Source: TPA_inf: Saccharomyces
Lineage: Eukaryota
NCBI GenBank assembly: GCA_000146045.2
Contig: BK006946.2
Span: forward strand, 128,001-192,000
Direction: 5' to 3'
Length of the DNA stretch: 64,000 nucleotides
The first letter of the stretch is position 1. The number at the start of each line of letters is the position of its first letter. Shown one piece after another: positions 14,210 through 43,310 of this stretch. Under the pieces are notes generated by a model. That model made no database searches. It saw only the letters and a list, made by a program, of their open reading frames with translations, and was not told the origin of the DNA. Both the position numbers and the translations under genes were made by a program.

Positions 14210-16954
14210 ATGGCAAAAACGTTGAAGGATTTACAGGGTTGGGAGATAATAACAACTGATGAGCAGGGAAATATAATCGATGGAGGTCAGAAGAGATTAC
14301 GCCGAAGAGGTGCAAAAACTGAACATTACTTAAAGAGAAGTTCTGATGGAATTAAACTAGGTCGTGGTGATAGTGTAGTCATGCACAACGAAGCCGCTGG
14401 GACTTACTCCGTTTATATGATCCAGGAGTTGAGACTTAATACATTAAATAATGTTGTCGAACTCTGGGCTCTCACCTATTTACGATGGTTTGAAGTCAAT
14501 CCTTTAGCTCATTATAGGCAGTTTAATCCTGACGCTAACATTTTGAATCGTCCTTTAAATTATTACAATAAACTGTTTTCTGAAACTGCAAATAAAAATG
14601 AACTGTATCTCACTGCAGAATTAGCCGAATTGCAGCTATTTAACTTTATCAGGGTTGCCAACGTAATGGATGGAAGCAAATGGGAAGTATTGAAAGGAAA
14701 TGTCGATCCAGAAAGAGACTTTACAGTTCGTTATATTTGTGAGCCGACTGGGGAGAAATTTGTGGACATTAATATTGAGGATGTCAAAGCTTACATAAAG
14801 AAAGTGGAGCCAAGGGAAGCCCAGGAATATTTGAAAGATTTAACACTTCCATCAAAGAAGAAAGAGATCAAAAGAGGTCCTCAAAAGAAAGATAAGGCTA
14901 CTCAAACGGCACAAATTTCAGACGCAGAAACAAGAGCTACAGATATAACGGATAATGAGGACGGTAATGAAGATGAATCATCTGATTATGAAAGTCCGTC
15001 AGATATCGACGTTAGCGAGGATATGGACAGCGGTGAAATATCCGCAGATGAGCTTGAGGAAGAAGAAGACGAAGAAGAAGACGAAGACGAAGAAGAGAAA
15101 GAAGCTAGGCATACAAATTCACCAAGGAAAAGAGGCCGTAAGATAAAACTAGGTAAAGATGATATTGACGCTTCTGTACAACCTCCCCCCAAAAAAAGAG
15201 GTCGTAAACCTAAAGATCCTAGTAAACCGCGTCAGATGCTATTGATATCTTCATGCCGTGCAAATAATACTCCTGTGATTAGGAAATTTACAAAAAAGAA
15301 TGTTGCTAGGGCGAAAAAGAAATATACCCCGTTTTCGAAAAGATTTAAATCTATAGCTGCAATACCAGATTTAACTTCATTACCTGAATTTTACGGAAAT
15401 TCTTCGGAATTGATGGCATCAAGGTTTGAAAACAAATTAAAAACAACCCAAAAGCATCAGATTGTAGAAACAATTTTTTCTAAAGTCAAAAAACAGTTGA
15501 ACTCTTCGTATGTCAAAGAAGAAATATTGAAGTCTGCAAATTTCCAAGATTATTTACCGGCTAGGGAGAATGAATTCGCCTCAATTTATTTAAGTGCATA
15601 TAGTGCCATTGAGTCCGACTCCGCTACTACTATATACGTGGCTGGTACGCCTGGTGTAGGGAAAACTTTAACCGTAAGGGAAGTCGTAAAGGAACTACTA
15701 TCGTCTTCTGCACAACGAGAAATACCAGACTTTCTTTATGTGGAAATAAATGGATTGAAAATGGTAAAACCCACAGACTGTTACGAAACTTTATGGAACA
15801 AAGTGTCAGGAGAAAGGTTAACATGGGCAGCTTCAATGGAGTCACTAGAGTTTTACTTTAAAAGAGTTCCAAAAAATAAGAAGAAAACCATTGTAGTCTT
15901 GTTGGACGAACTCGATGCCATGGTAACGAAATCTCAAGATATTATGTACAATTTTTTCAATTGGACTACTTACGAAAATGCCAAACTTATTGTCATTGCA
16001 GTAGCCAATACAATGGACTTACCAGAACGTCAGCTAGGCAATAAGATTACTTCAAGAATTGGGTTTACCAGAATTATGTTCACTGGGTATACGCACGAAG
16101 AGCTAAAAAATATCATTGATTTAAGACTGAAGGGGTTGAACGACTCATTTTTCTATGTTGATACAAAAACTGGCAATGCTATTTTGATTGATGCGGCTGG
16201 AAACGACACTACAGTTAAGCAAACGTTGCCTGAAGACGTGAGGAAAGTTCGCTTAAGAATGAGTGCTGATGCCATTGAAATAGCTTCGAGAAAAGTAGCA
16301 AGTGTTAGTGGTGATGCAAGAAGAGCATTGAAGGTTTGTAAAAGAGCAGCTGAAATTGCTGAAAAACACTATATGGCTAAGCATGGTTATGGATATGATG
16401 GAAAGACGGTTATTGAAGATGAAAATGAGGAGCAAATATACGATGATGAAGACAAGGATCTTATTGAAAGTAACAAAGCCAAAGACGATAATGATGACGA
16501 TGATGACAATGATGGGGTACAAACAGTTCACATCACGCACGTTATGAAAGCCTTAAACGAAACTTTAAATTCTCATGTAATTACGTTTATGACGCGACTT
16601 TCATTTACAGCAAAACTGTTTATTTATGCATTATTAAACTTGATGAAAAAGAACGGATCTCAAGAGCAAGAACTGGGCGATATTGTCGATGAAATCAAGT
16701 TACTTATTGAAGTAAATGGCAGTAATAAGTTTGTCATGGAGATAGCCAAAACATTGTTCCAACAGGGAAGTGATAATATTTCTGAACAATTGAGAATTAT
16801 ATCATGGGATTTCGTTCTCAATCAGTTACTTGACGCGGGAATATTGTTTAAACAAACTATGAAGAACGATAGAATATGTTGTGTCAAGCTAAATATATCA
16901 GTAGAAGAAGCCAAAAGAGCCATGAATGAGGATGAGACATTGAGAAATTTATAG
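14210..16954 (+). CDS. ORC1: Origin recognition complex subunit 1, 914 aa from the first ATG (MAKTLKDLQGWEII...). It has BAH-domain-like N-terminal sequence, acidic D/E runs, and AAA+ Walker A GTPGVGKT and Walker B VVLLDELD motifs.
   Basis: The track ORF of 928 aa starts at an upstream TTG; the first ATG is 14 codons in. Start placed at 14210 to stay in frame with the track ORF (14168..16954). My hand count of the printed line puts the ATG one base earlier. Confidence 0.9.
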   Translation: MAKTLKDLQGWEIITTDEQGNIIDGGQKRLRRRGAKTEHYLKRSSDGIKLGRGDSVVMHNEAAGTYSVYMIQELRLNTLNNVVELWALTYLRWFEVNPLAHYRQFNPDANILNRPLNYYNKLFSETANKNELYLTAELAELQLFNFIRVANVMDGSKWEVLKGNVDPERDFTVRYICEPTGEKFVDINIEDVKAYIKKVEPREAQEYLKDLTLPSKKKEIKRGPQKKDKATQTAQISDAETRATDITDNEDGNEDESSDYESPSDIDVSEDMDSGEISADELEEEEDEEEDEDEEEKEARHTNSPRKRGRKIKLGKDDIDASVQPPPKKRGRKPKDPSKPRQMLLISSCRANNTPVIRKFTKKNVARAKKKYTPFSKRFKSIAAIPDLTSLPEFYGNSSELMASRFENKLKTTQKHQIVETIFSKVKKQLNSSYVKEEILKSANFQDYLPARENEFASIYLSAYSAIESDSATTIYVAGTPGVGKTLTVREVVKELLSSSAQREIPDFLYVEINGLKMVKPTDCYETLWNKVSGERLTWAASMESLEFYFKRVPKNKKKTIVVLLDELDAMVTKSQDIMYNFFNWTTYENAKLIVIAVANTMDLPERQLGNKITSRIGFTRIMFTGYTHEELKNIIDLRLKGLNDSFFYVDTKTGNAILIDAAGNDTTVKQTLPEDVRKVRLRMSADAIEIASRKVASVSGDARRALKVCKRAAEIAEKHYMAKHGYGYDGKTVIEDENEEQIYDDEDKDLIESNKAKDDNDDDDDNDGVQTVHITHVMKALNETLNSHVITFMTRLSFTAKLFIYALLNLMKKNGSQEQELGDIVDEIKLLIEVNGSNKFVMEIAKTLFQQGSDNISEQLRIISWDFVLNQLLDAGILFKQTMKNDRICCVKLNISVEEAKRAMNEDETLRNL

Positions 16955-25218: not shown

Positions 25219-28200
25219 TCAAATACTATTTCTTCTATGTAATAAAAACTCAGGAACTTGAGAATTCAAAGTGGTTTCTTGTGAACCAGGTATATATGGC
25301 ATCTTGTCGTCGTCAATAAGCCCTTGCAAAAAGATACGACCATAGTCTACACCCACATGATAAATTTCTTCGAACTTGCTAAAGTCTAATGTGGCATATT
25401 CTTCAATAGGTGGTCTCACATAAACGACACCTGGTGTATTTTTCGCTTTCTCTAAAGCATTTACTGATGCGACGTAACCCAATCTAACTTGAATCTCTGC
25501 CATATTGGGTATGTTTGGATGAGAAGAAAATGGATTCCATCTATTGAAAATGATCCAAAACCCATTTAGGGAGTCACCATATTCCATAGGCGTTCTATCA
25601 TCTGCAGAACCTACATCTACTGCAAATATAGTTTGGCAACCACGCGCTCTCATCTCAGTTACTGGTAAATTATCAACATAACCACCATCCAGTAACATAG
25701 ACCCGTTCTCTTCCAAAGGAGGTAAAAGACCAGCAAGAGACATCGAAGCTCTGATGTACCTCCACGCATAACCAAAGGAATGTATTTCTTGAACCGAATC
25801 GGTTATATTAGTAGAATTACAATAATACTGGATCCAGAAGTCTTCAATTCTTGTATCCCCGAAAGTTTTCCAAATACCTCTATTAAATTCGTGACCAGTA
25901 GTATAAGAAGTAACCGGCCAGGTTAAATCTGTTAACATTCTCCATATAGAGGAAATTCGACCAGCAAACTTCTTCACGCGGCCGTAAATTGGCACCAAAT
26001 CATAATCCTTCGCGTACAAACCGCCAACAAAGGAACCAATCGATGTTCCTCCAATAACGTCGACCGGAATACCTTGTTCTTCAATAGCTTGAATGACACC
26101 CAAATGACTAATACCTCTCGCACCTCCTCCTCCGAGGACAAGTCCAATAGCTTGTCCAGAAAGAATTCTAGCCAATCTTAGAAAATCATTTTTATGCCTA
26201 TGAACTGGTGTGTAATATTGTCTTTTACTTTTCATGAATCTTGAAGAAAAGTTTTCTACGGTGTTCTTGATAGAATCTGGAAGTAGTTTTGATATATTCT
26301 GTTGAGTTTTTCTACTGAATTCTGTTTGAATCAACTTATCCATTAATGCCAAGGCACCATTATTCAAAACGTGCATTTTGCCTTCGTTCATCAAGGTTGT
26401 TCCTGTCAAACTAAATTGAATGTGATGATGCGAATGAACCCATGGCCTATAGCGTAACCACTTATGGGTTAGTCCTGGTTCCACATACCTTTCAGGGTGT
26501 AGAAGAATTAACTCGGTCCTTGCGGTAGTCTTTGAATTTAGTAATAACTTTTCATATTCTCCTATTTCGGCTGATGGAGATCTAGCATCTGCTAGTAAGA
26601 GAATACAATCACCTTGCGCAATACAGGTTCTTGTCCAATTAGATTTAACTGGTGTATCTGATATATAAACAACAGTCTGGTACATTTCTTCTAGTTCAGC
26701 AAAGTAACCACTTTGTTTTAATTTGGACAATCTGTCAAATGCATGACGACCTAAATGTGTTAGGGTAGTTCTTTGATTTAAACCAATCGTGGTCCTTCCT
26801 ACCTGTTTGAAAGCTTGCACTAACTTCATAGCAAATGCTTCTACAGGTAGTCCACTGGTAATTGGTAAGATAGTGATGGTTCTAAAAGTAATTGTGCCAG
26901 AAGTAATATTTTGGGGTTTATGACTTAAAGAGCTAGAGTAAGACGCTTTCGTTGGAGGTATTAAAGAAGTGAAGTCGTTTTCCTTTATAGATAATGGATC
27001 GCCTGTTAATGCTGGAACAGTTCTATCTCCGACAATTTTTTTAGCAACTAATCTGGAAACTCTAATCATGATAGATGGATGTTCAAGAGCTAATAGTTCG
27101 AATAATGTTCTCGGAATTCTCGCTAATTCAGAATCCCTCACTGCCACTATCGTTGAATATCTATTCATAGCGGTAAGCACTTCAACTTCACCAAAACTCT
27201 CCCCCTGGGCCAGTTCTCCTAGAATAATGTTCTGAGTTTCAACTTCTTCGGAACTTGTATTGGAGTTTGACAATGACTGCTGTTGTAGCTGCCTTAGTCT
27301 ACCATTCAGGACAACATAAATACCGTTAGCCGAGTCACCTTGTGAAAATAGAGTTTCAGAAGCCCTCAAGTGAACCCATTCTAAAGCATGGTCGAGCTTT
27401 AATAACCTTGAAGATAGCAATTTGGTTAATGAATCAGAAATCCGTAAGTAGATTAGGAAATATTTATCAAACAATCTTTCTAAGGTTGCACTAGATAAAA
27501 ATCCAACATAGACATCGCTCTTGGCAACGATATTAACAAATGATTTGTAACCAATTAGAGAGGACAAGTAGCCCACAATACCACCAGATCCTACAGAGTA
27601 TAACAAATGTTGAGTATGATGAGGATTTTCACCCTTGTGTGAACTTTGGGCTGAAACCTGCTCTGGTTTAGACATTGATGATACTACTGACGAGGACGAA
27701 TTTGTTGTCACATTAACTTTCCCGGAAATGATATAGAATAGGCCTTTACCACGAGCGTTCTGCTCAACAATTGTGGTGCCCTTTTTAAAGAACTTCAACT
27801 GAATGCCTTGTGCAAAGTCTTTCTTGACATCTTCGAAATCCAAATTGGGTGTCAACTCCTCTTTGTAAGCTCTAGGTTTTTTTTTGTCCTGGCTTTTACT
27901 TTTATTATGCCTTTTATTGCTGATAGTGTATTCTTTGGGTAGGATTCTTAACATTGTCGGTTGAGTTTGAGGAGAGGCAAATGATGAAGCTACGGAAATG
28001 TCAGATGGTGTACAGTGAGGGGACATCAGAAAACTTGCGTTACTTGGACGGCGGCTATACATTTCATTAAGTTGAGGAGAGTTTAAAGAAGACATATTTG
28101 CTATCGAAGAAGATGAAACGGACATATTGCTTTTGTTTACACCCAAGTATGTTAACATTGCCTCAACTAAAGCCATTCTTAAAGCAGAGTCCTCGGTTTC

Positions 28201-30258
28201 TTCCTGGGCAGCAGAAAAGGATGTTGTGGGCAGTAAATTAGGTCTTGGAGAGACCCGTCCCTTCAAATGAACGGGACTTGGGTGGATATGGTCATGAACA
28301 GAAGTATTATCCAAGGACAAGGGCGATGTACTAAGTTGTGCGTTGCGCAATTCTGGGGACAAAGAAGAAAACTTCTTAGAGTGTACGGAAGCATTGTTAC
28401 TGCTACTCCTAGAAGATCGCTTATGTTGGTTAGAGGTAGAAGTGTTAATACCGTTTGATTTATTGCGGTTGTTATTATGGATTGGGTTGGGTGACAGAAT
28501 ATCCATAGTTCTAGACAGTGGGACATTTGACAGTAAATCACCAGGATTAAATTGGTCTCTTGAACCCAGTACGACATGTCTCGAACTTGGATGGTGGGTG
28601 AATTCTGGTTTCAGTGAAAGGGAATTCGAACTTGTGTTAGCGTTGGCGTTAGCAATCTTAAGCGATTGAATGATACCATCAGATGGCTTCGCTTTGGGCG
28701 GTTTCTTCAATTTAGAGGAAGCATTACTATTTTTGGGTTTCGGTTCTAAATCAGCCGATCCGCTCGACTTATCTACAGTTTTAAACTTACGAATAACGGC
28801 CTCTTTCAAATAATAAGGCAATTCATAAACGATGGATTTATTTAGTAAAACTTCGATATCCATGATCTCCTTTGTTAAACCTAAGTAGTCGTGAGCAGTT
28901 TGGAACGTAACATGGTATAGCTTGGTGAGAACCATCTGTATGATATGGGAAGCAGACCGTGGGTATTTTGCGGTTAATTTGGCAAACGATTGAGGTGGGA
29001 TAATACCAATTGTGCAGTCTGTAGCCGCACGGGCGACAAGTTTAGGCATTGAAGAGGGGAACGTTGGAAAGCTGTTGGTGGAGTTTGTCATGGAATCTGT
29101 GTTGGAGAAGTTCTGCTCTGATGAGCAGAACATATTGTTGACCGACACCGTTGTGTCTATAGGTGACGATAACTCAGAGGGAAAGTTACTGTTGCCATAC
29201 GAGGACATGGAATGCGTGAATAAGTTTAAAATGCTCACGAGGGAGGTCAGCGGGTTTCCTGGCTTGACTGTATTTAGCAGTTGAAAATTTCCCAGTCCAT
29301 TTTTCAGATGAATGTAACCAACGGATTCATCTTCTTCATCGATGAGGTTAGAAGAACAAGATTTGGTGTCGTAGTTATCAATGTCATCATCTTCTTCTTC
29401 GTCTTCTTCATCTCTATCCTGGTCGTCAAGACCATCCGTGTCACTGTGGTCAGTTTCATCGCCATGGTCCTTATCTGAATGATCTACTTCATGATATAAC
29501 TGCAGGGTGCCTTCAACGACGATGGCAAACCCAATAGTACTGTCCAACAGTAAAATCTCACCCTCATCCATTTTTTGAGTTTTCATATTCTTGGTCAGGT
29601 CATGGAAGACTGGTTTTTCCAGATAGCCAAAGATTTTGATGGCGCTGAGAAATTGGTCAAGGTAAGATGAAAGAAAGGTTTCGTTTTCGTTGCCATCTTT
29701 CAATGAATGCTTTTTTGAGTCTATAATCGAGCTTGCACCCGTGGTAGAGGAACCTATGGCGGGTGGCGCGTTGGCTGACTGAGTGGAAGCTGCATTGATA
29801 TTGGCGCTGGAGCCAGATTTACCTGTATTTTCCAGCGGCAAGAACTCCGGGGTCAGCCTCTTGTACTGGGATAGAATTCTCTCCTTCATGATGGTGTAAG
29901 TCACAAAGACTATGACGGCTAGGGCAAACAGGATCAGCCAAAAGGAAAGAGTGAACTGAACATGGTGTAACTTGAAGAAGATCCACTTCGGAATCCTTAA
30001 AAGCGATAAAGTTGCCAGATACCAACCGTACCTGAAGATCATACGAGAGGCACCCATAACAAAGTAGGACACAACCCACGAGAAGTTGAAGAGGGATGAA
30101 AGTGACCACGTCTGCGCCTCAGAAATAATCTGGTCGGTGAGACATGTCTGGAATCTATAAGAAGTATAATTACTGGAATTAAAGCTGGAGCCAAGACTGT
30201 TTTTCGTGTTTTGGCCGGTATTGTTGGTGTTGTTCGTAGTGCAATTCATTGAACGCAT
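25219..30258 (-). CDS. NTE1: Neuropathy-target-esterase family phosphatidylcholine phospholipase B, 1679 aa. It has an N-terminal TM segment, cNMP-binding-like repeats and a patatin domain (GGGGARG ... GTSIG).
   Basis: ORF track; patatin motifs near the C-terminus. Confidence 0.9.
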   Translation of the reverse strand: MRSMNCTTNNTNNTGQNTKNSLGSSFNSSNYTSYRFQTCLTDQIISEAQTWSLSSLFNFSWVVSYFVMGASRMIFRYGWYLATLSLLRIPKWIFFKLHHVQFTLSFWLILFALAVIVFVTYTIMKERILSQYKRLTPEFLPLENTGKSGSSANINAASTQSANAPPAIGSSTTGASSIIDSKKHSLKDGNENETFLSSYLDQFLSAIKIFGYLEKPVFHDLTKNMKTQKMDEGEILLLDSTIGFAIVVEGTLQLYHEVDHSDKDHGDETDHSDTDGLDDQDRDEEDEEEDDDIDNYDTKSCSSNLIDEEDESVGYIHLKNGLGNFQLLNTVKPGNPLTSLVSILNLFTHSMSSYGNSNFPSELSSPIDTTVSVNNMFCSSEQNFSNTDSMTNSTNSFPTFPSSMPKLVARAATDCTIGIIPPQSFAKLTAKYPRSASHIIQMVLTKLYHVTFQTAHDYLGLTKEIMDIEVLLNKSIVYELPYYLKEAVIRKFKTVDKSSGSADLEPKPKNSNASSKLKKPPKAKPSDGIIQSLKIANANANTSSNSLSLKPEFTHHPSSRHVVLGSRDQFNPGDLLSNVPLSRTMDILSPNPIHNNNRNKSNGINTSTSNQHKRSSRSSSNNASVHSKKFSSLSPELRNAQLSTSPLSLDNTSVHDHIHPSPVHLKGRVSPRPNLLPTTSFSAAQEETEDSALRMALVEAMLTYLGVNKSNMSVSSSSIANMSSLNSPQLNEMYSRRPSNASFLMSPHCTPSDISVASSFASPQTQPTMLRILPKEYTISNKRHNKSKSQDKKKPRAYKEELTPNLDFEDVKKDFAQGIQLKFFKKGTTIVEQNARGKGLFYIISGKVNVTTNSSSSVVSSMSKPEQVSAQSSHKGENPHHTQHLLYSVGSGGIVGYLSSLIGYKSFVNIVAKSDVYVGFLSSATLERLFDKYFLIYLRISDSLTKLLSSRLLKLDHALEWVHLRASETLFSQGDSANGIYVVLNGRLRQLQQQSLSNSNTSSEEVETQNIILGELAQGESFGEVEVLTAMNRYSTIVAVRDSELARIPRTLFELLALEHPSIMIRVSRLVAKKIVGDRTVPALTGDPLSIKENDFTSLIPPTKASYSSSLSHKPQNITSGTITFRTITILPITSGLPVEAFAMKLVQAFKQVGRTTIGLNQRTTLTHLGRHAFDRLSKLKQSGYFAELEEMYQTVVYISDTPVKSNWTRTCIAQGDCILLLADARSPSAEIGEYEKLLLNSKTTARTELILLHPERYVEPGLTHKWLRYRPWVHSHHHIQFSLTGTTLMNEGKMHVLNNGALALMDKLIQTEFSRKTQQNISKLLPDSIKNTVENFSSRFMKSKRQYYTPVHRHKNDFLRLARILSGQAIGLVLGGGGARGISHLGVIQAIEEQGIPVDVIGGTSIGSFVGGLYAKDYDLVPIYGRVKKFAGRISSIWRMLTDLTWPVTSYTTGHEFNRGIWKTFGDTRIEDFWIQYYCNSTNITDSVQEIHSFGYAWRYIRASMSLAGLLPPLEENGSMLLDGGYVDNLPVTEMRARGCQTIFAVDVGSADDRTPMEYGDSLNGFWIIFNRWNPFSSHPNIPNMAEIQVRLGYVASVNALEKAKNTPGVVYVRPPIEEYATLDFSKFEEIYHVGVDYGRIFLQGLIDDDKMPYIPGSQETTLNSQVPEFLLHRRNSI

Positions 30259-30546
30259 GCAAAAACTAGAGCCAAGCCTTTCTATTCTTTTCTTGTTTAT
30301 TTTATATTCGTTAGAGTTTTGTGGTGTTTCTTTAACTTAATAAACTTTCGAGAAAAGTGTCAAGTTTCCCAGATTTTTAAGATCCTTATAACCTGTAAAA
30401 AAAAAAAAAAAAAAAAAAAAGAAGGGTTTAAATAAAAATCGGACTTACTCAAAGGGTTGAAAAGCACTTTAATATAGGTTTTTAGTTTCGGGTAAGAAGA
30501 TGTGTCAAAGGTCTCGAAAAGGAAACATTAGGGCAAATACGTAAAG

Positions 30547-30599
30547 GTTGCCTTCGTATCTCGTTTCCACAGCAACGAGAAACGAGATACGAAGGCAAC
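30547..30599. promoter_or_regulatory. Perfect inverted repeat, 21-bp arms (GTTGCCTTCGTATCTCGTTTC / GAAACGAGATACGAAGGCAAC) with an 11-bp spacer, ending about 12 bp upstream of the HUG1 TATAAAAG at 30613-30620. Arms carry Crt1/Rfx1 X-box half-sites (GTTGCC / GGCAAC).
   Basis: Checked base by base. The arms do not extend further. Location is about 160-210 bp upstream of the HUG1 ATG. Confidence 0.5.
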
Positions 30600-30759
30600 T
30601 GATTCCCAGCATATAAAAGGCCATGAATTTTTGGCGTTTCCTATTGTCTTTTCGAAACTATTTCTTTCATTCCTTTCCTTTCTTGTTCTTTTACTTATAA
30701 GAAAAATAATATACGTATATATATAACTACAAACCACATCAGCAATAAAAAAAAACTAT

Positions 30760-30966
30760 ATGACCATGGACCAAGGCCTTAACCCAAAGCAATTCTTCCT
30801 TGACGATGTCGTCCTACAAGACACTTTGTGCTCAATGAGCAACCGTGTCAACAAGAGTGTCAAGACCGGCTACTTATTCCCCAAGGATCACGTTCCTTCT
30901 GCCAACATCATTGCCGTCGAACGTCGCGGCGGTCTTTCTGACATTGGTAAGAATACTTCCAACTAA
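30760..30966 (+). CDS. HUG1: Small DNA-damage/replication-stress-induced protein, 68 aa
   Basis: ORF track; begins MTMDQGLNPKQFFLDDVVLQDTLCSMSNRVNK. Size and position immediately upstream of SML1. Confidence 0.85.
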   Translation: MTMDQGLNPKQFFLDDVVLQDTLCSMSNRVNKSVKTGYLFPKDHVPSANIIAVERRGGLSDIGKNTSN

Positions 30967-31382: not shown

Positions 31383-31697
31383 ATGCAAAATTCCCAAGAC
31401 TACTTTTACGCTCAAAATCGCTGCCAACAACAACAAGCCCCTTCCACATTGCGTACCGTGACCATGGCGGAATTTAGAAGGGTGCCTTTGCCACCTATGG
31501 CTGAGGTTCCTATGTTGTCTACTCAAAACTCCATGGGCAGCTCCGCTTCTGCCTCCGCTTCTTCATTAGAAATGTGGGAAAAGGATTTGGAGGAGAGACT
31601 CAACTCTATCGATCATGACATGAACAACAACAAATTTGGTTCTGGCGAACTAAAATCTATGTTCAACCAGGGTAAGGTCGAGGAAATGGACTTCTAA
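31383..31697 (+). CDS. SML1: Ribonucleotide reductase inhibitor, 104 aa
   Basis: ORF track; begins MQNSQDYFYAQNRCQQQQAPSTLRTVTMAEFRRVPLPPMAEVP. Confidence 0.9.
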   Translation: MQNSQDYFYAQNRCQQQQAPSTLRTVTMAEFRRVPLPPMAEVPMLSTQNSMGSSASASASSLEMWEKDLEERLNSIDHDMNNNKFGSGELKSMFNQGKVEEMDF

Positions 31698-31845: not shown

Positions 31846-31876
<31 letters not shown>

Positions 31877-32179
31877 GTCTCTTCTACGTATTTTTGTATT
31901 TCTGTGTCTTTATCAAAGATAGTCTATAATACGTTTGATACAGCTAGATATCGCTAGCGCCAACATTGTCCCCCTCTCTTGATCAATGCTTTTTTTCGGC
32001 CCGAGACAAATGAGAAAATGTCCTAAAAATACCTTTCATCAAGACTCCTATTTTTCCTTAGAAAAAACATATATCCAACTGGAACAGTATTAAGCCAATT
32101 GCTACGATACAAACAAAAGGAGATATTCCTTCCCTCCCATAGAGTCACACAGGAGCCAGTACTTCTTCTTGAACCCGCA

Positions 32180-41754: not shown

Positions 41755-42401
41755 TTCACGCAGCACACTTGAGTCTTAAATTAATGAATAAAAGCAGCCA
41801 ACCCCAAGAAAAAAGAGCCCTTATCTGTTTCTGTCGCAGTCCTATTGTATTCTTCCTAACTATATAATTTTGTCAAAATGAAAAATATAAAAAAAATAAT
41901 AAAGTCAGCTGAGTGGTAAAGAGAAAGCAAAGGGAGAGAAAAATCGGTTACCCAGATGGATTAGGTTACCCAGATGTCATACGTGTATCATGATTTCTAG
42001 AAATTATTACCCTGTTTGGTACCATGACAACGGATATGGCAATCTTGCATTAAGTAAAATGTCTCTAATGGGACCGTGAAGGTACAAAACAGCAATGGTC
42101 TAGGTAGTGGCATTCGAAGCTTCGAAAGCGTGGCCTCGCCTCGAGCGTGAAGTCATATTTTCTCACTCTGCACTGCCGTGCTGTGCCATGTAGCCCACTG
42201 TATGCCTCTAGCACCCCAATCGGGAAAATTGTAAACATTAGCAGGTGTCGCCTCGAGGCCCCCGATACATTTTTCAACATCTCCTCGATACTTAAACAGC
42301 AAACAAACAAGCAACACCCACGCAAGAAGATTTATTAATACCTCTTGACTCCCGTAGATATTGAAGAGACTAAGTATAGTAACGCATATCCGCACAATAC
42401 T

Positions 42402-43310
42402 ATGGTTAAGGTCTGGAATATAGTACTACGTCTGGTAGTGTTGCTGTTTTTAGCAGGTAATACCTTGCTGTTAATTTTGATGATTATATCTGGTGCCACG
42501 GACCATTACCCCGTGAACAGATTCTATTGGGTGCAGGGCAATACAACAGGCATACCTAATGCTGGGGATGAAACACGTTGGACGTTTTGGGGCGCCTGTC
42601 TACAGGATAAAGACGGGTCGGATACCTGCACAAGCAATTTGGCACCTGCATACCCCATTTCCCCAGTAGATAACTTCAACACACACATCAATGTCCCTCA
42701 CCAGTTTATTTCCAAAAGAGACGCTTTTTACTACCTGACTAGATTTTCATTTTGTTTCTTTTGGATTGCGCTTGCCTTTGTAGGTGTGTCGTTTATCCTT
42801 TACGTTTTGACTTGGTGCTCGAAGATGCTTTCAGAGATGGTGCTTATCCTCATGTCTTTTGGGTTTGTCTTCAATACGGCAGCCGTTGTCTTGCAAACGG
42901 CCGCCTCTGCCATGGCAAAGAATGCTTTCCATGACGATCATCGTAGTGCCCAATTGGGTGCCTCTATGATGGGTATGGCTTGGGCAAGTGTCTTTTTATG
43001 TATCGTGGAATTTATCCTGCTGGTCTTCTGGTCTGTTAGGGCAAGGTTGGCCTCTACTTACTCCATCGACAATTCAAGATACAGAACCTCCTCCAGATGG
43101 AATCCCTTCCATAGAGAGAAGGAGCAAGCAACTGACCCAATATTGACTGCCACTGGACCTGAAGACATGCAACAAAGTGCAAGCATAGTGGGGCCTTCTT
43201 CCAATGCTAATCCGGTCACTGCCACTGCTGCTACGGAAAACCAACCTAAAGGTATTAACTTCTTCACTATAAGAAAATCACACGAGCGCCCGGACGATGT
43301 CTCTGTTTAA
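42402..43310 (+). CDS. SUR7: Eisosome / MCC plasma-membrane tetraspan protein, 302 aa from the ATG at 42402 (MVKVWNIVLRLVVLLFLAG...)
   Basis: The track ORF of 321 aa starts upstream; it is trimmed to the first ATG. Four TM segments. Confidence 0.88.
   Translation: MVKVWNIVLRLVVLLFLAGNTLLLILMIISGATDHYPVNRFYWVQGNTTGIPNAGDETRWTFWGACLQDKDGSDTCTSNLAPAYPISPVDNFNTHINVPHQFISKRDAFYYLTRFSFCFFWIALAFVGVSFILYVLTWCSKMLSEMVLILMSFGFVFNTAAVVLQTAASAMAKNAFHDDHRSAQLGASMMGMAWASVFLCIVEFILLVFWSVRARLASTYSIDNSRYRTSSRWNPFHREKEQATDPILTATGPEDMQQSASIVGPSSNANPVTATAATENQPKGINFFTIRKSHERPDDVSV

Follow-up and report, generated by a model that had tools for sequence, protein, structure and literature searches.

The closest described counterparts of the DNA element analyzed here are the Crt1-bound promoters of the yeast RNR genes, with which HUG1 itself is grouped in the literature. 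Crt1 binds the X-box of the RNR2, RNR3, RNR4 and HUG1 promoters (PMC3806659), and a second report describes strong and weak X-boxes in the HUG1 promoter that are recognized by Crt1-Tup1-Ssn6 (PMC12199148). For the RNR genes, PMC3245922, summarizing Huang 1998, gives synergism between strong and weak X-boxes, with values of 1.4-1.7-fold, 5-fold and 17-fold. The promoter structures of HUG1 and RNR3 are similar (PMC3044965). Crt1 represses HUG1, which hydroxyurea induces more than 1000-fold (PMC6695201), and deletion of rfx1 derepresses it (PMC11152081). HUG1 is also under a genetically defined repression that is Crt1-independent and Mck1-dependent (PMC6695201). RNR2-4 are repressed by Rox1 and Mot3 in synergy with Rfx1/Crt1. 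A role for Rph1 at HUG1 is ruled out, HUG1 being Rph1-independent.

HUG1 is among the most strongly induced yeast DNA-damage reporters, and its promoter is widely used in biosensors. We find beside its TATA box a 53-bp interrupted inverted repeat that is not random, contains one of the two best RFX matrix matches of the DNA analyzed, is conserved in seven Saccharomyces species and occurs in modular and mirror-image architectures. This repeat is probably the known Crt1/Rfx1 operator (upstream repressing element) of HUG1, a reading to which we give a probability of roughly 0.78. The kind of element and its location are both known already, so that it is no new class of element; its palindromic modular build, non-RFX invariant core and mirror-image species variants are, as far as we have checked, undescribed details of modest interest. 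Our literature search found the arm sequences in no paper, and found no paper linking HUG1 with a palindrome.

The inverted repeat and the HUG1 locus

The window (the whole stretch of S. cerevisiae DNA analyzed, 64 kb) has the gene order NTE1<-|->HUG1->SML1 at this locus, and the repeat is housed in the 501-bp divergent NTE1-HUG1 intergenic region, directly 5′ of the HUG1 TATA box (Table 1). The initial annotation had correctly named the downstream gene HUG1, since its product is 100% identical to the cluster member 'MEC1-mediated checkpoint protein HUG1, HUG1_YEAST'. Searches for homologs of Hug1 and Sml1 gave matches within Saccharomyces only.

Table 1. Positions of the features discussed (position 1 is the first letter of the window)
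Feature	Position	Strand	Sequence or composition	Remarks
HUG1 element, 53-bp interrupted inverted repeat	30547-30599		GTTGCCTTCGTATCTCGTTTC-CACAGCAACGA-GAAACGAGATACGAAGGCAAC
Left arm	30547-30567	+	GTTGCCTTCGTATCTCGTTTC	16/21 columns invariant in 7 species
Spacer, 11 nt	30568-30578	+	CACAGCAACGA	Carries right half of central X-box
Right arm	30579-30599	+	GAAACGAGATACGAAGGCAAC	16/21 columns invariant in 7 species
X1	30547-30560		GTTGCC-TT-CGTATC	2 mismatches; perfect outer half, degenerate inner half
X2, central near-consensus X-box	30563-30576		GTTTCCACAGCAAC (GTTTCC-AC-AGCAAC)	1 mismatch
X3	30586-30599		GATACG-AA-GGCAAC	2 mismatches; exact reverse complement of X1
Nested second inverted repeat, centered on X2	30559-30580		TCTCGTT (30559-30565) / AACGAGA (30574-30580)	8-bp core TCCACAGC
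Tandem 7-mers	30577-30590	+	GAGAAAC GAGATAC	Mirror of GTATCTC at 30556-30562
Modular build of the element			L9 GTTGCCTTC + GTATCTC + X-box + GAGAAAC GAGATAC + R9 GAAGGCAAC
HUG1 TATA box	30612-30619	+	TATAAAAG
HUG1 ORF, regulated gene	30760-30966	+		68-aa product
NTE1 ORF	25219-30258	-		1679-aa patatin/cNMP-binding protein; named by size and domains
SML1 ORF	31383-31697			104 aa; matches proteins named SML1
Metallophos-domain (calcineurin-like phosphatase) ORF	near HUG1			Domain taken from orthologous gene
NTE1-proximal conserved block	30341-30368		CTTTCGAGAAAAGTGTCAA	83-110 bp upstream of NTE1 start codon
A run	30389-30420		About 31 A
TTAGGGC motif	30529-30535		TTAGGGC	About 15 bp upstream of the palindrome
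Conserved block after TATA box	30633-30650		GGCGTTTCCTATTGTCT	14 bp downstream of TATA box
(AT)n palindrome, 28 bp	31851-31878		ACATATATATATAT + complement	Perfect, no spacer; downstream of SML1
Other top RFX-matrix match	42018-42031		GGTACCATGACAAC	Intergenic, upstream of ORF 42345-43310
Other top RFX-matrix match	15914-15927		GATGCCATGGTAAC	Within 928-aa ORF

A repeat finder and the sequence itself agree with the geometry given in the initial annotation: the 21-nt arms are 100% complementary with 11 nt between them, GCAAC stands in the spacer (30572-30576), and 12 nt (30600-30611) separate the repeat from the TATA box. The same annotation spoke of a 53-bp perfect palindrome; the structure is instead an interrupted inverted repeat of 21 + 11 + 21 nt. 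The arm cores are CGTATCTCG and CGAGATACG. With spacers of at most 60, this is the longest perfect inverted repeat of the window, the runner-up non-simple repeat having 12-nt arms; the longest arms in 40 first-order Markov simulations were 9-13 nt, and chance would yield about 3e-6 repeats whose arms reach or exceed 21 nt. The 53-bp repeat is far beyond chance. A scan of the sequence for bacterial promoters and terminators, which is irrelevant to yeast, gave no match.

We also note several other features of the surrounding DNA. The top-conserved block of the NTE1-HUG1 intergenic region is the NTE1-proximal one, with 19/21 columns invariant in 7 species, and it has CGAGAAA in common with the 7-mer units of the palindrome arms. 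Between this block and the HUG1 operator lies the A run, which is probably a nucleosome-excluding poly(dA:dT) tract and whose length and purity differ strongly among species. The TTAGGGC motif, of which TAGGGC is invariant in 7 species, resembles a Tbf1-type TTAGGG site. The block that follows the TATA box hardly varies within the genus and holds an RFX-like half-site, GTTTCC, together with the sole ATTGT (a Rox1/HMG-like core) of the intergenic region, which is TTTGT in S. arboricola. The (AT)n palindrome beyond SML1 is a simple-sequence repeat. Finally, the HUG1 allele of S. cerevisiae strain AIS carries three clustered substitutions (K32S, F40L and D43G) to the residues of S. kudriavzevii/S. 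uvarum and may be an introgressed or converted tract; its promoter element is nonetheless of the S. cerevisiae type.

X-boxes and conservation of the arms

Three 14-mers of the element, each with a 2-bp center, resemble the RFX consensus GTNRCC-N2-RGYAAC. A loose IUPAC scan of the window (at most 2 mismatches) gives 111 matches against about 94 expected, and clusters of three matches are also present in shuffled sequence; such a scan is uninformative alone, so we used a symmetrized matrix instead. Its source is a set of 30 C. elegans X-boxes with experimental validation (PMC3245922, Table 1) rather than footprints of yeast Crt1. RFX domains contact DNA through residues that are almost unchanged between yeast and mammals (PMC3245922). 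With this C. elegans-derived matrix X2 ranks second among 63,987 positions, and first when the central dinucleotide is ignored, in which case it scores 16.7 of 20.9 bits. X1 and X3 reach 4.7-5.6 bits on the same C. elegans-derived scale, which puts them at about rank 55-61, in the top 0.09%, and on a level with the weakest of the validated C. elegans X-boxes. The element combines one strong and two weak matrix matches inside 53 bp.

The RNR4 promoter, a known Crt1 target, served as positive control in S. cerevisiae and S. eubayanus with the same matrix. An X-box, GTTGTTGTGGCAAC, lies 84 bp upstream of the TATA box and scores 15.3 bits; another, GTTGCCATGGCAAA, lies further upstream and scores 13.7 bits; each is conserved in the two species. 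Around the proximal RNR4 X-box, these species share 92% identity over 140 bp. Two further top matches to the matrix occur elsewhere in the window (Table 1), and the one inside the 928-aa ORF is probably due to chance.

X2 is probably the strong Crt1 site, and the main RFX site of the HUG1 element, judged by matrix rank, is this central X-box and not the outer ends. The initial annotation had placed X-box half-sites at those outer ends (GTTGCC...GGCAAC); as the key sites these do not hold up, since the two are 41 bp apart, which makes a single X-box from both impossible, and they are the least conserved portion of the arms. At best, each outer half-site is the strong half of its own weak 14-mer. 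The "further GCAAC" that it had noticed is indeed present in the spacer and is in fact the right half of X2, which runs from the inner end of the left arm into the spacer. Its broader proposal of an extended Crt1/Rfx1 operator agrees with the best RFX site, the conserved arms and the literature, once the outer half-sites are given up as the key to it.

For conservation we compared the orthologous promoters of S. paradoxus, S. mikatae, S. kudriavzevii, S. arboricola, S. uvarum and S. eubayanus, with two strains each of S. kudriavzevii, S. uvarum and S. eubayanus, and 11 more assemblies of S. cerevisiae. Across all 13 S. cerevisiae sequences (the window, these 11 assemblies and one metagenome contig) the element shows no difference; the metagenome scan, made with TGCCTTCGTATYTCGT, gave that identical S. 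cerevisiae contig, chance matches in unrelated contigs and no new species. In the seven-species alignment 32/42 arm columns (76%) are invariant, compared with 26% of the upstream intergenic DNA and 22% of the DNA downstream of 30650 (hypergeometric P about 1e-9). All species keep the element 12 bp from the TATA box, apart from 15 bp in one S. uvarum strain, and the S. uvarum elements lie about 200 bp upstream of the HUG1 ATG. X2 holds 16.7-19.5 bits in all eight orthologous sequences.

Conservation of the arms in related yeasts, considered in the initial annotation, thus extends to three quarters of their columns, and the outer half-sites are only partly kept. The X1 matrix match is gone in 6/8 sequences (S. 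mikatae, S. kudriavzevii, S. arboricola, both S. uvarum and S. eubayanus) and the X3 match in S. paradoxus, S. arboricola, S. eubayanus and one S. uvarum strain, so that in most species X1, X3 or both score under 3 bits. Of the outer half-sites, GTTGCC and GGCAAC, weakened forms read GGCAGC in S. paradoxus and S. eubayanus, TTTGCC in S. uvarum and S. eubayanus, and ATTGCC in S. mikatae, and they are degenerate in S. arboricola (TGTGCC and GACAAT). The invariant inner core, TGCCTTCGTAT + TCGT on the left and CGAGATACGA on the right, is not RFX-like. The arms are under selection, but not simply as RFX half-sites, and with a non-RFX invariant core and decaying outer half-sites any binding of Crt1 to the arms is hypothetical.

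Two operator alleles occur in S. uvarum. The first is of the common 53-bp type and has arms of 20 nt. In the second, the 5 bp GCAAC are duplicated behind the central X-box, one A of the right arm is replaced by C and the TATA distance is 15 bp.

The Crt1 operator that we favor would work as follows. A dimeric RFX-type repressor would bind the near-consensus central X-box, and the mirror-image arms would contribute two weak X-box-like sites or half-sites that face opposite ways; X2 and the arm sites would correspond to the "strong plus weak X-boxes" published for the HUG1 promoter. Bound Crt1 would recruit Ssn6-Tup1 directly beside the TATA box, 12 bp away, and so silence HUG1, until phosphorylation of Crt1 by Mec1-Rad53-Dun1 (and Mck1) releases it and turns the gene on. 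The palindromy would then reflect a symmetric arrangement of protein sites around a dyad-symmetric X-box and not a hairpin requirement. That Crt1 binds the HUG1 X-boxes, recruits Tup1-Ssn6 and leaves on damage comes from the literature; which of X1-X3 are occupied, whether they cooperate and any contribution of TATA proximity we infer. The locus has these features of the operator class: an imperfect palindrome of 13-15 bp fitting the RFX consensus GTNRCC(N0-3)RGYAAC at a Crt1-repressed, damage-induced gene, strong and weak sites, and conservation.

An arm core that is invariant off the RFX half-sites, and X1/X3 matches that decay in several species, also point toward a composite operator, in which Crt1 would occupy the central X-box only and the arm cores would be symmetric sites of a second, cooperating factor that recruits Ssn6-Tup1. 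This possibility overlaps with the Crt1 operator and is not exclusive of it; we regard it as a tentative one, with the odds somewhat against it. Candidates for the second factor are Mot3, on TGCCTT/AAGGCA, or another protein recognizing TCGTATCTCG/CGAGATACGA. The Mot3 consensus is HAGGYA and that of Rox1 is YYYATTGTTCTC. HAGGYA occurs just twice in the 501-bp HUG1 intergenic region, once in each arm, and the sole ATTGT of that region (at 30643) is in the conserved block just after the TATA box. Consistent with the reported synergistic co-repression of RNR2-4 by Rox1, Mot3 and Crt1, ATTGTTC, TGCCTT and the conserved X-box GTTGTTGTGGCAAC stand in a row upstream of RNR4, directly adjoining each other. 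However, the Mot3 and Rox1 consensus sequences are short, a chance match being expected about every 340 bp, and while TGCCTT on the left does not vary, 2/8 sequences (S. arboricola and one S. uvarum strain) lack AAGGCA on the right. The RNR4 upstream region does not contain the arm core CGAGATACGA, and the 8-mers that the HUG1 element shares with the RNR4 promoter (TTGCCTTC, TCGTTTCC) are not significant (P 0.64). We know of no factor that recognizes CGAGATACGA. The Crt1-independent, Mck1-dependent layer of HUG1 repression (PMC6695201) is a further point in favor of a second factor.

Modular build and mirror-image forms

All eight orthologous sequences can be parsed as L9(GTTGCCTTC)-(GTATYTC)n-X2-(GAGAWAC)m-R9(GAAGGCAAC). 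Most species (S. cerevisiae, S. paradoxus, S. uvarum, S. eubayanus and S. kudriavzevii) have the pair (n,m) = (1,2), whereas S. mikatae has (2,1) and S. arboricola (1,3). With (1,1), the simplest symmetric case, the center of the palindrome would coincide exactly with that of the X-box; the 21-nt repeat of S. cerevisiae is off-center from X2 because the extra one-sided 7-mer shifts the dyad by 3.5 bp. The nested repeat centered on X2 is 12 nt long in S. mikatae, and in S. kudriavzevii the 8-bp X2 core is exactly inverted between 7-nt nested arms. The S. mikatae and S. kudriavzevii elements differ by 17 mismatches when compared directly and by only 2 when one is compared with the reverse complement of the other; each of these forms is backed by two independent assemblies.

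From these alignments we infer that repeat-mediated inversions and 7-bp slippage have probably remodeled the HUG1 operator. The mirror-image forms of S. mikatae and S. kudriavzevii would imply that operator function is independent of orientation relative to the TATA box, and such independence fits a symmetric repressor site, as expected. A more specific proposal is that the TCGTATCTCG/CGAGATACGA cores are symmetric sites for a second factor flanking the Crt1 X-box, possibly the Crt1-independent, Mck1-sensitive HUG1 repressor, in an operator whose parts have repeatedly been flipped and whose mirror forms work equally; taken as a whole, we think this unlikely.

The interspecies differences, which resemble repeat-mediated spacer inversions and 7-bp slippage, suggest that the repeat probably shaped the mutational history of the element. 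This brings up the cruciform or fragility potential proposed in the initial annotation: the arms might be kept for cruciform or hairpin extrusion, for example under transcription-driven supercoiling, and the extruded structure would regulate HUG1 or make a fragile or recombinogenic site. The single-strand hairpin is indeed stable (-24.6 kcal/mol, z = -9 vs shuffles), and perfect arms of at least 19 nt are kept, with an 11-nt spacer, in S. cerevisiae (21 nt), S. uvarum strain A (20 nt), S. paradoxus (19 nt) and S. eubayanus (19 nt). Against this, arms and spacers measure 17 and 17 nt in S. mikatae, 16 and 19 nt in S. arboricola, 14 and 16 nt in S. uvarum strain B, and 13 and 27 nt in S. kudriavzevii, so that spacers of 16-27 nt occur in four lineages. 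An 11-nt spacer disfavors cruciform extrusion, and palindrome fragility in yeast needs arms of roughly 100 bp or more. The arm differences between species are all one-sided, with 0 compensatory pairs among the eight orthologous sequences, so that selection acts on the sequence of each arm and not on arm-to-arm pairing. Nor is any instability visible in S. cerevisiae, where all 13 sequences agree, two alleles being found in S. uvarum only. We therefore consider a DNA-structure element very improbable. A recent "palindrome correction" of the S. cerevisiae arms was also considered and is ruled out by the arms of the same sequence, 19-20 nt long, in S. paradoxus, S. uvarum and S. eubayanus.

Least credible of all is that the element is a neutral by-product, the leftover of an inverted duplication with no function beyond the central X-box: tandem 7-mers and mirror forms do show a region prone to duplication and inversion, but the conservation of the arms across the genus, at over three quarters of columns against 22-26% in the surrounding intergenic DNA, contradicts a purely neutral origin.

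Comparison with RNR promoters and other systems

Read as the Crt1 operator of HUG1, the element offers some details of practical use, which may help in designing damage-responsive promoters that are minimal or tunable: the main X-box is probably the central one and not the outer half-sites, and the best-conserved arm bases are non-RFX-like, pointing to a further contact or a second factor. The mirror-image operators of two species would be a natural experiment on orientation independence, and the element as a whole a likely example of repeat-mediated inversion inside a eukaryotic promoter.

In that last respect the S. kudriavzevii and S. mikatae variants are like products of quasi-palindrome template switching, with its short inverted repeats and invertible spacers, and they show exact inversion between repeat arms both relative to the common form and relative to each other. 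They are unlike ongoing template switching in that the S. cerevisiae sequences compared show no inversion or polymorphism, and the events are deduced from 7 species only.

The nearest relatives of the HUG1 element are the X-box clusters of RNR2, RNR3, RNR4 and CRT1. Like these, it belongs to a gene induced through Mec1-Rad53-Dun1, carries its 14-bp RFX X-boxes on the upstream side of the TATA box, combines a strong site with several weak ones and shares Ssn6-Tup1 recruitment. The arrangement differs from that of RNR4, whose proximal X-box, 84 bp upstream of TATA, has no comparable repeat around it and whose second X-box is about 450 bp upstream, whereas HUG1 packs three sites into 53 bp as a perfect 21-nt inverted repeat 12 bp from TATA. 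Metazoan RFX/DAF-19 promoters likewise have the 14-bp imperfect palindrome GTNRCC-N2-RGYAAC, with strong and weak motifs in one promoter; they are mostly activating (ciliary genes), while the HUG1 sites repress and form a larger palindrome. As a functional analogy only, bacterial LexA SOS boxes are also dyad-symmetric operators beside the core promoter of a damage-inducible gene, and LexA, like Crt1, is a dimeric repressor inactivated by a damage signal; the two belong to unrelated families, and Crt1 acts through a corepressor and chromatin and is released by phosphorylation, not by self-cleavage.
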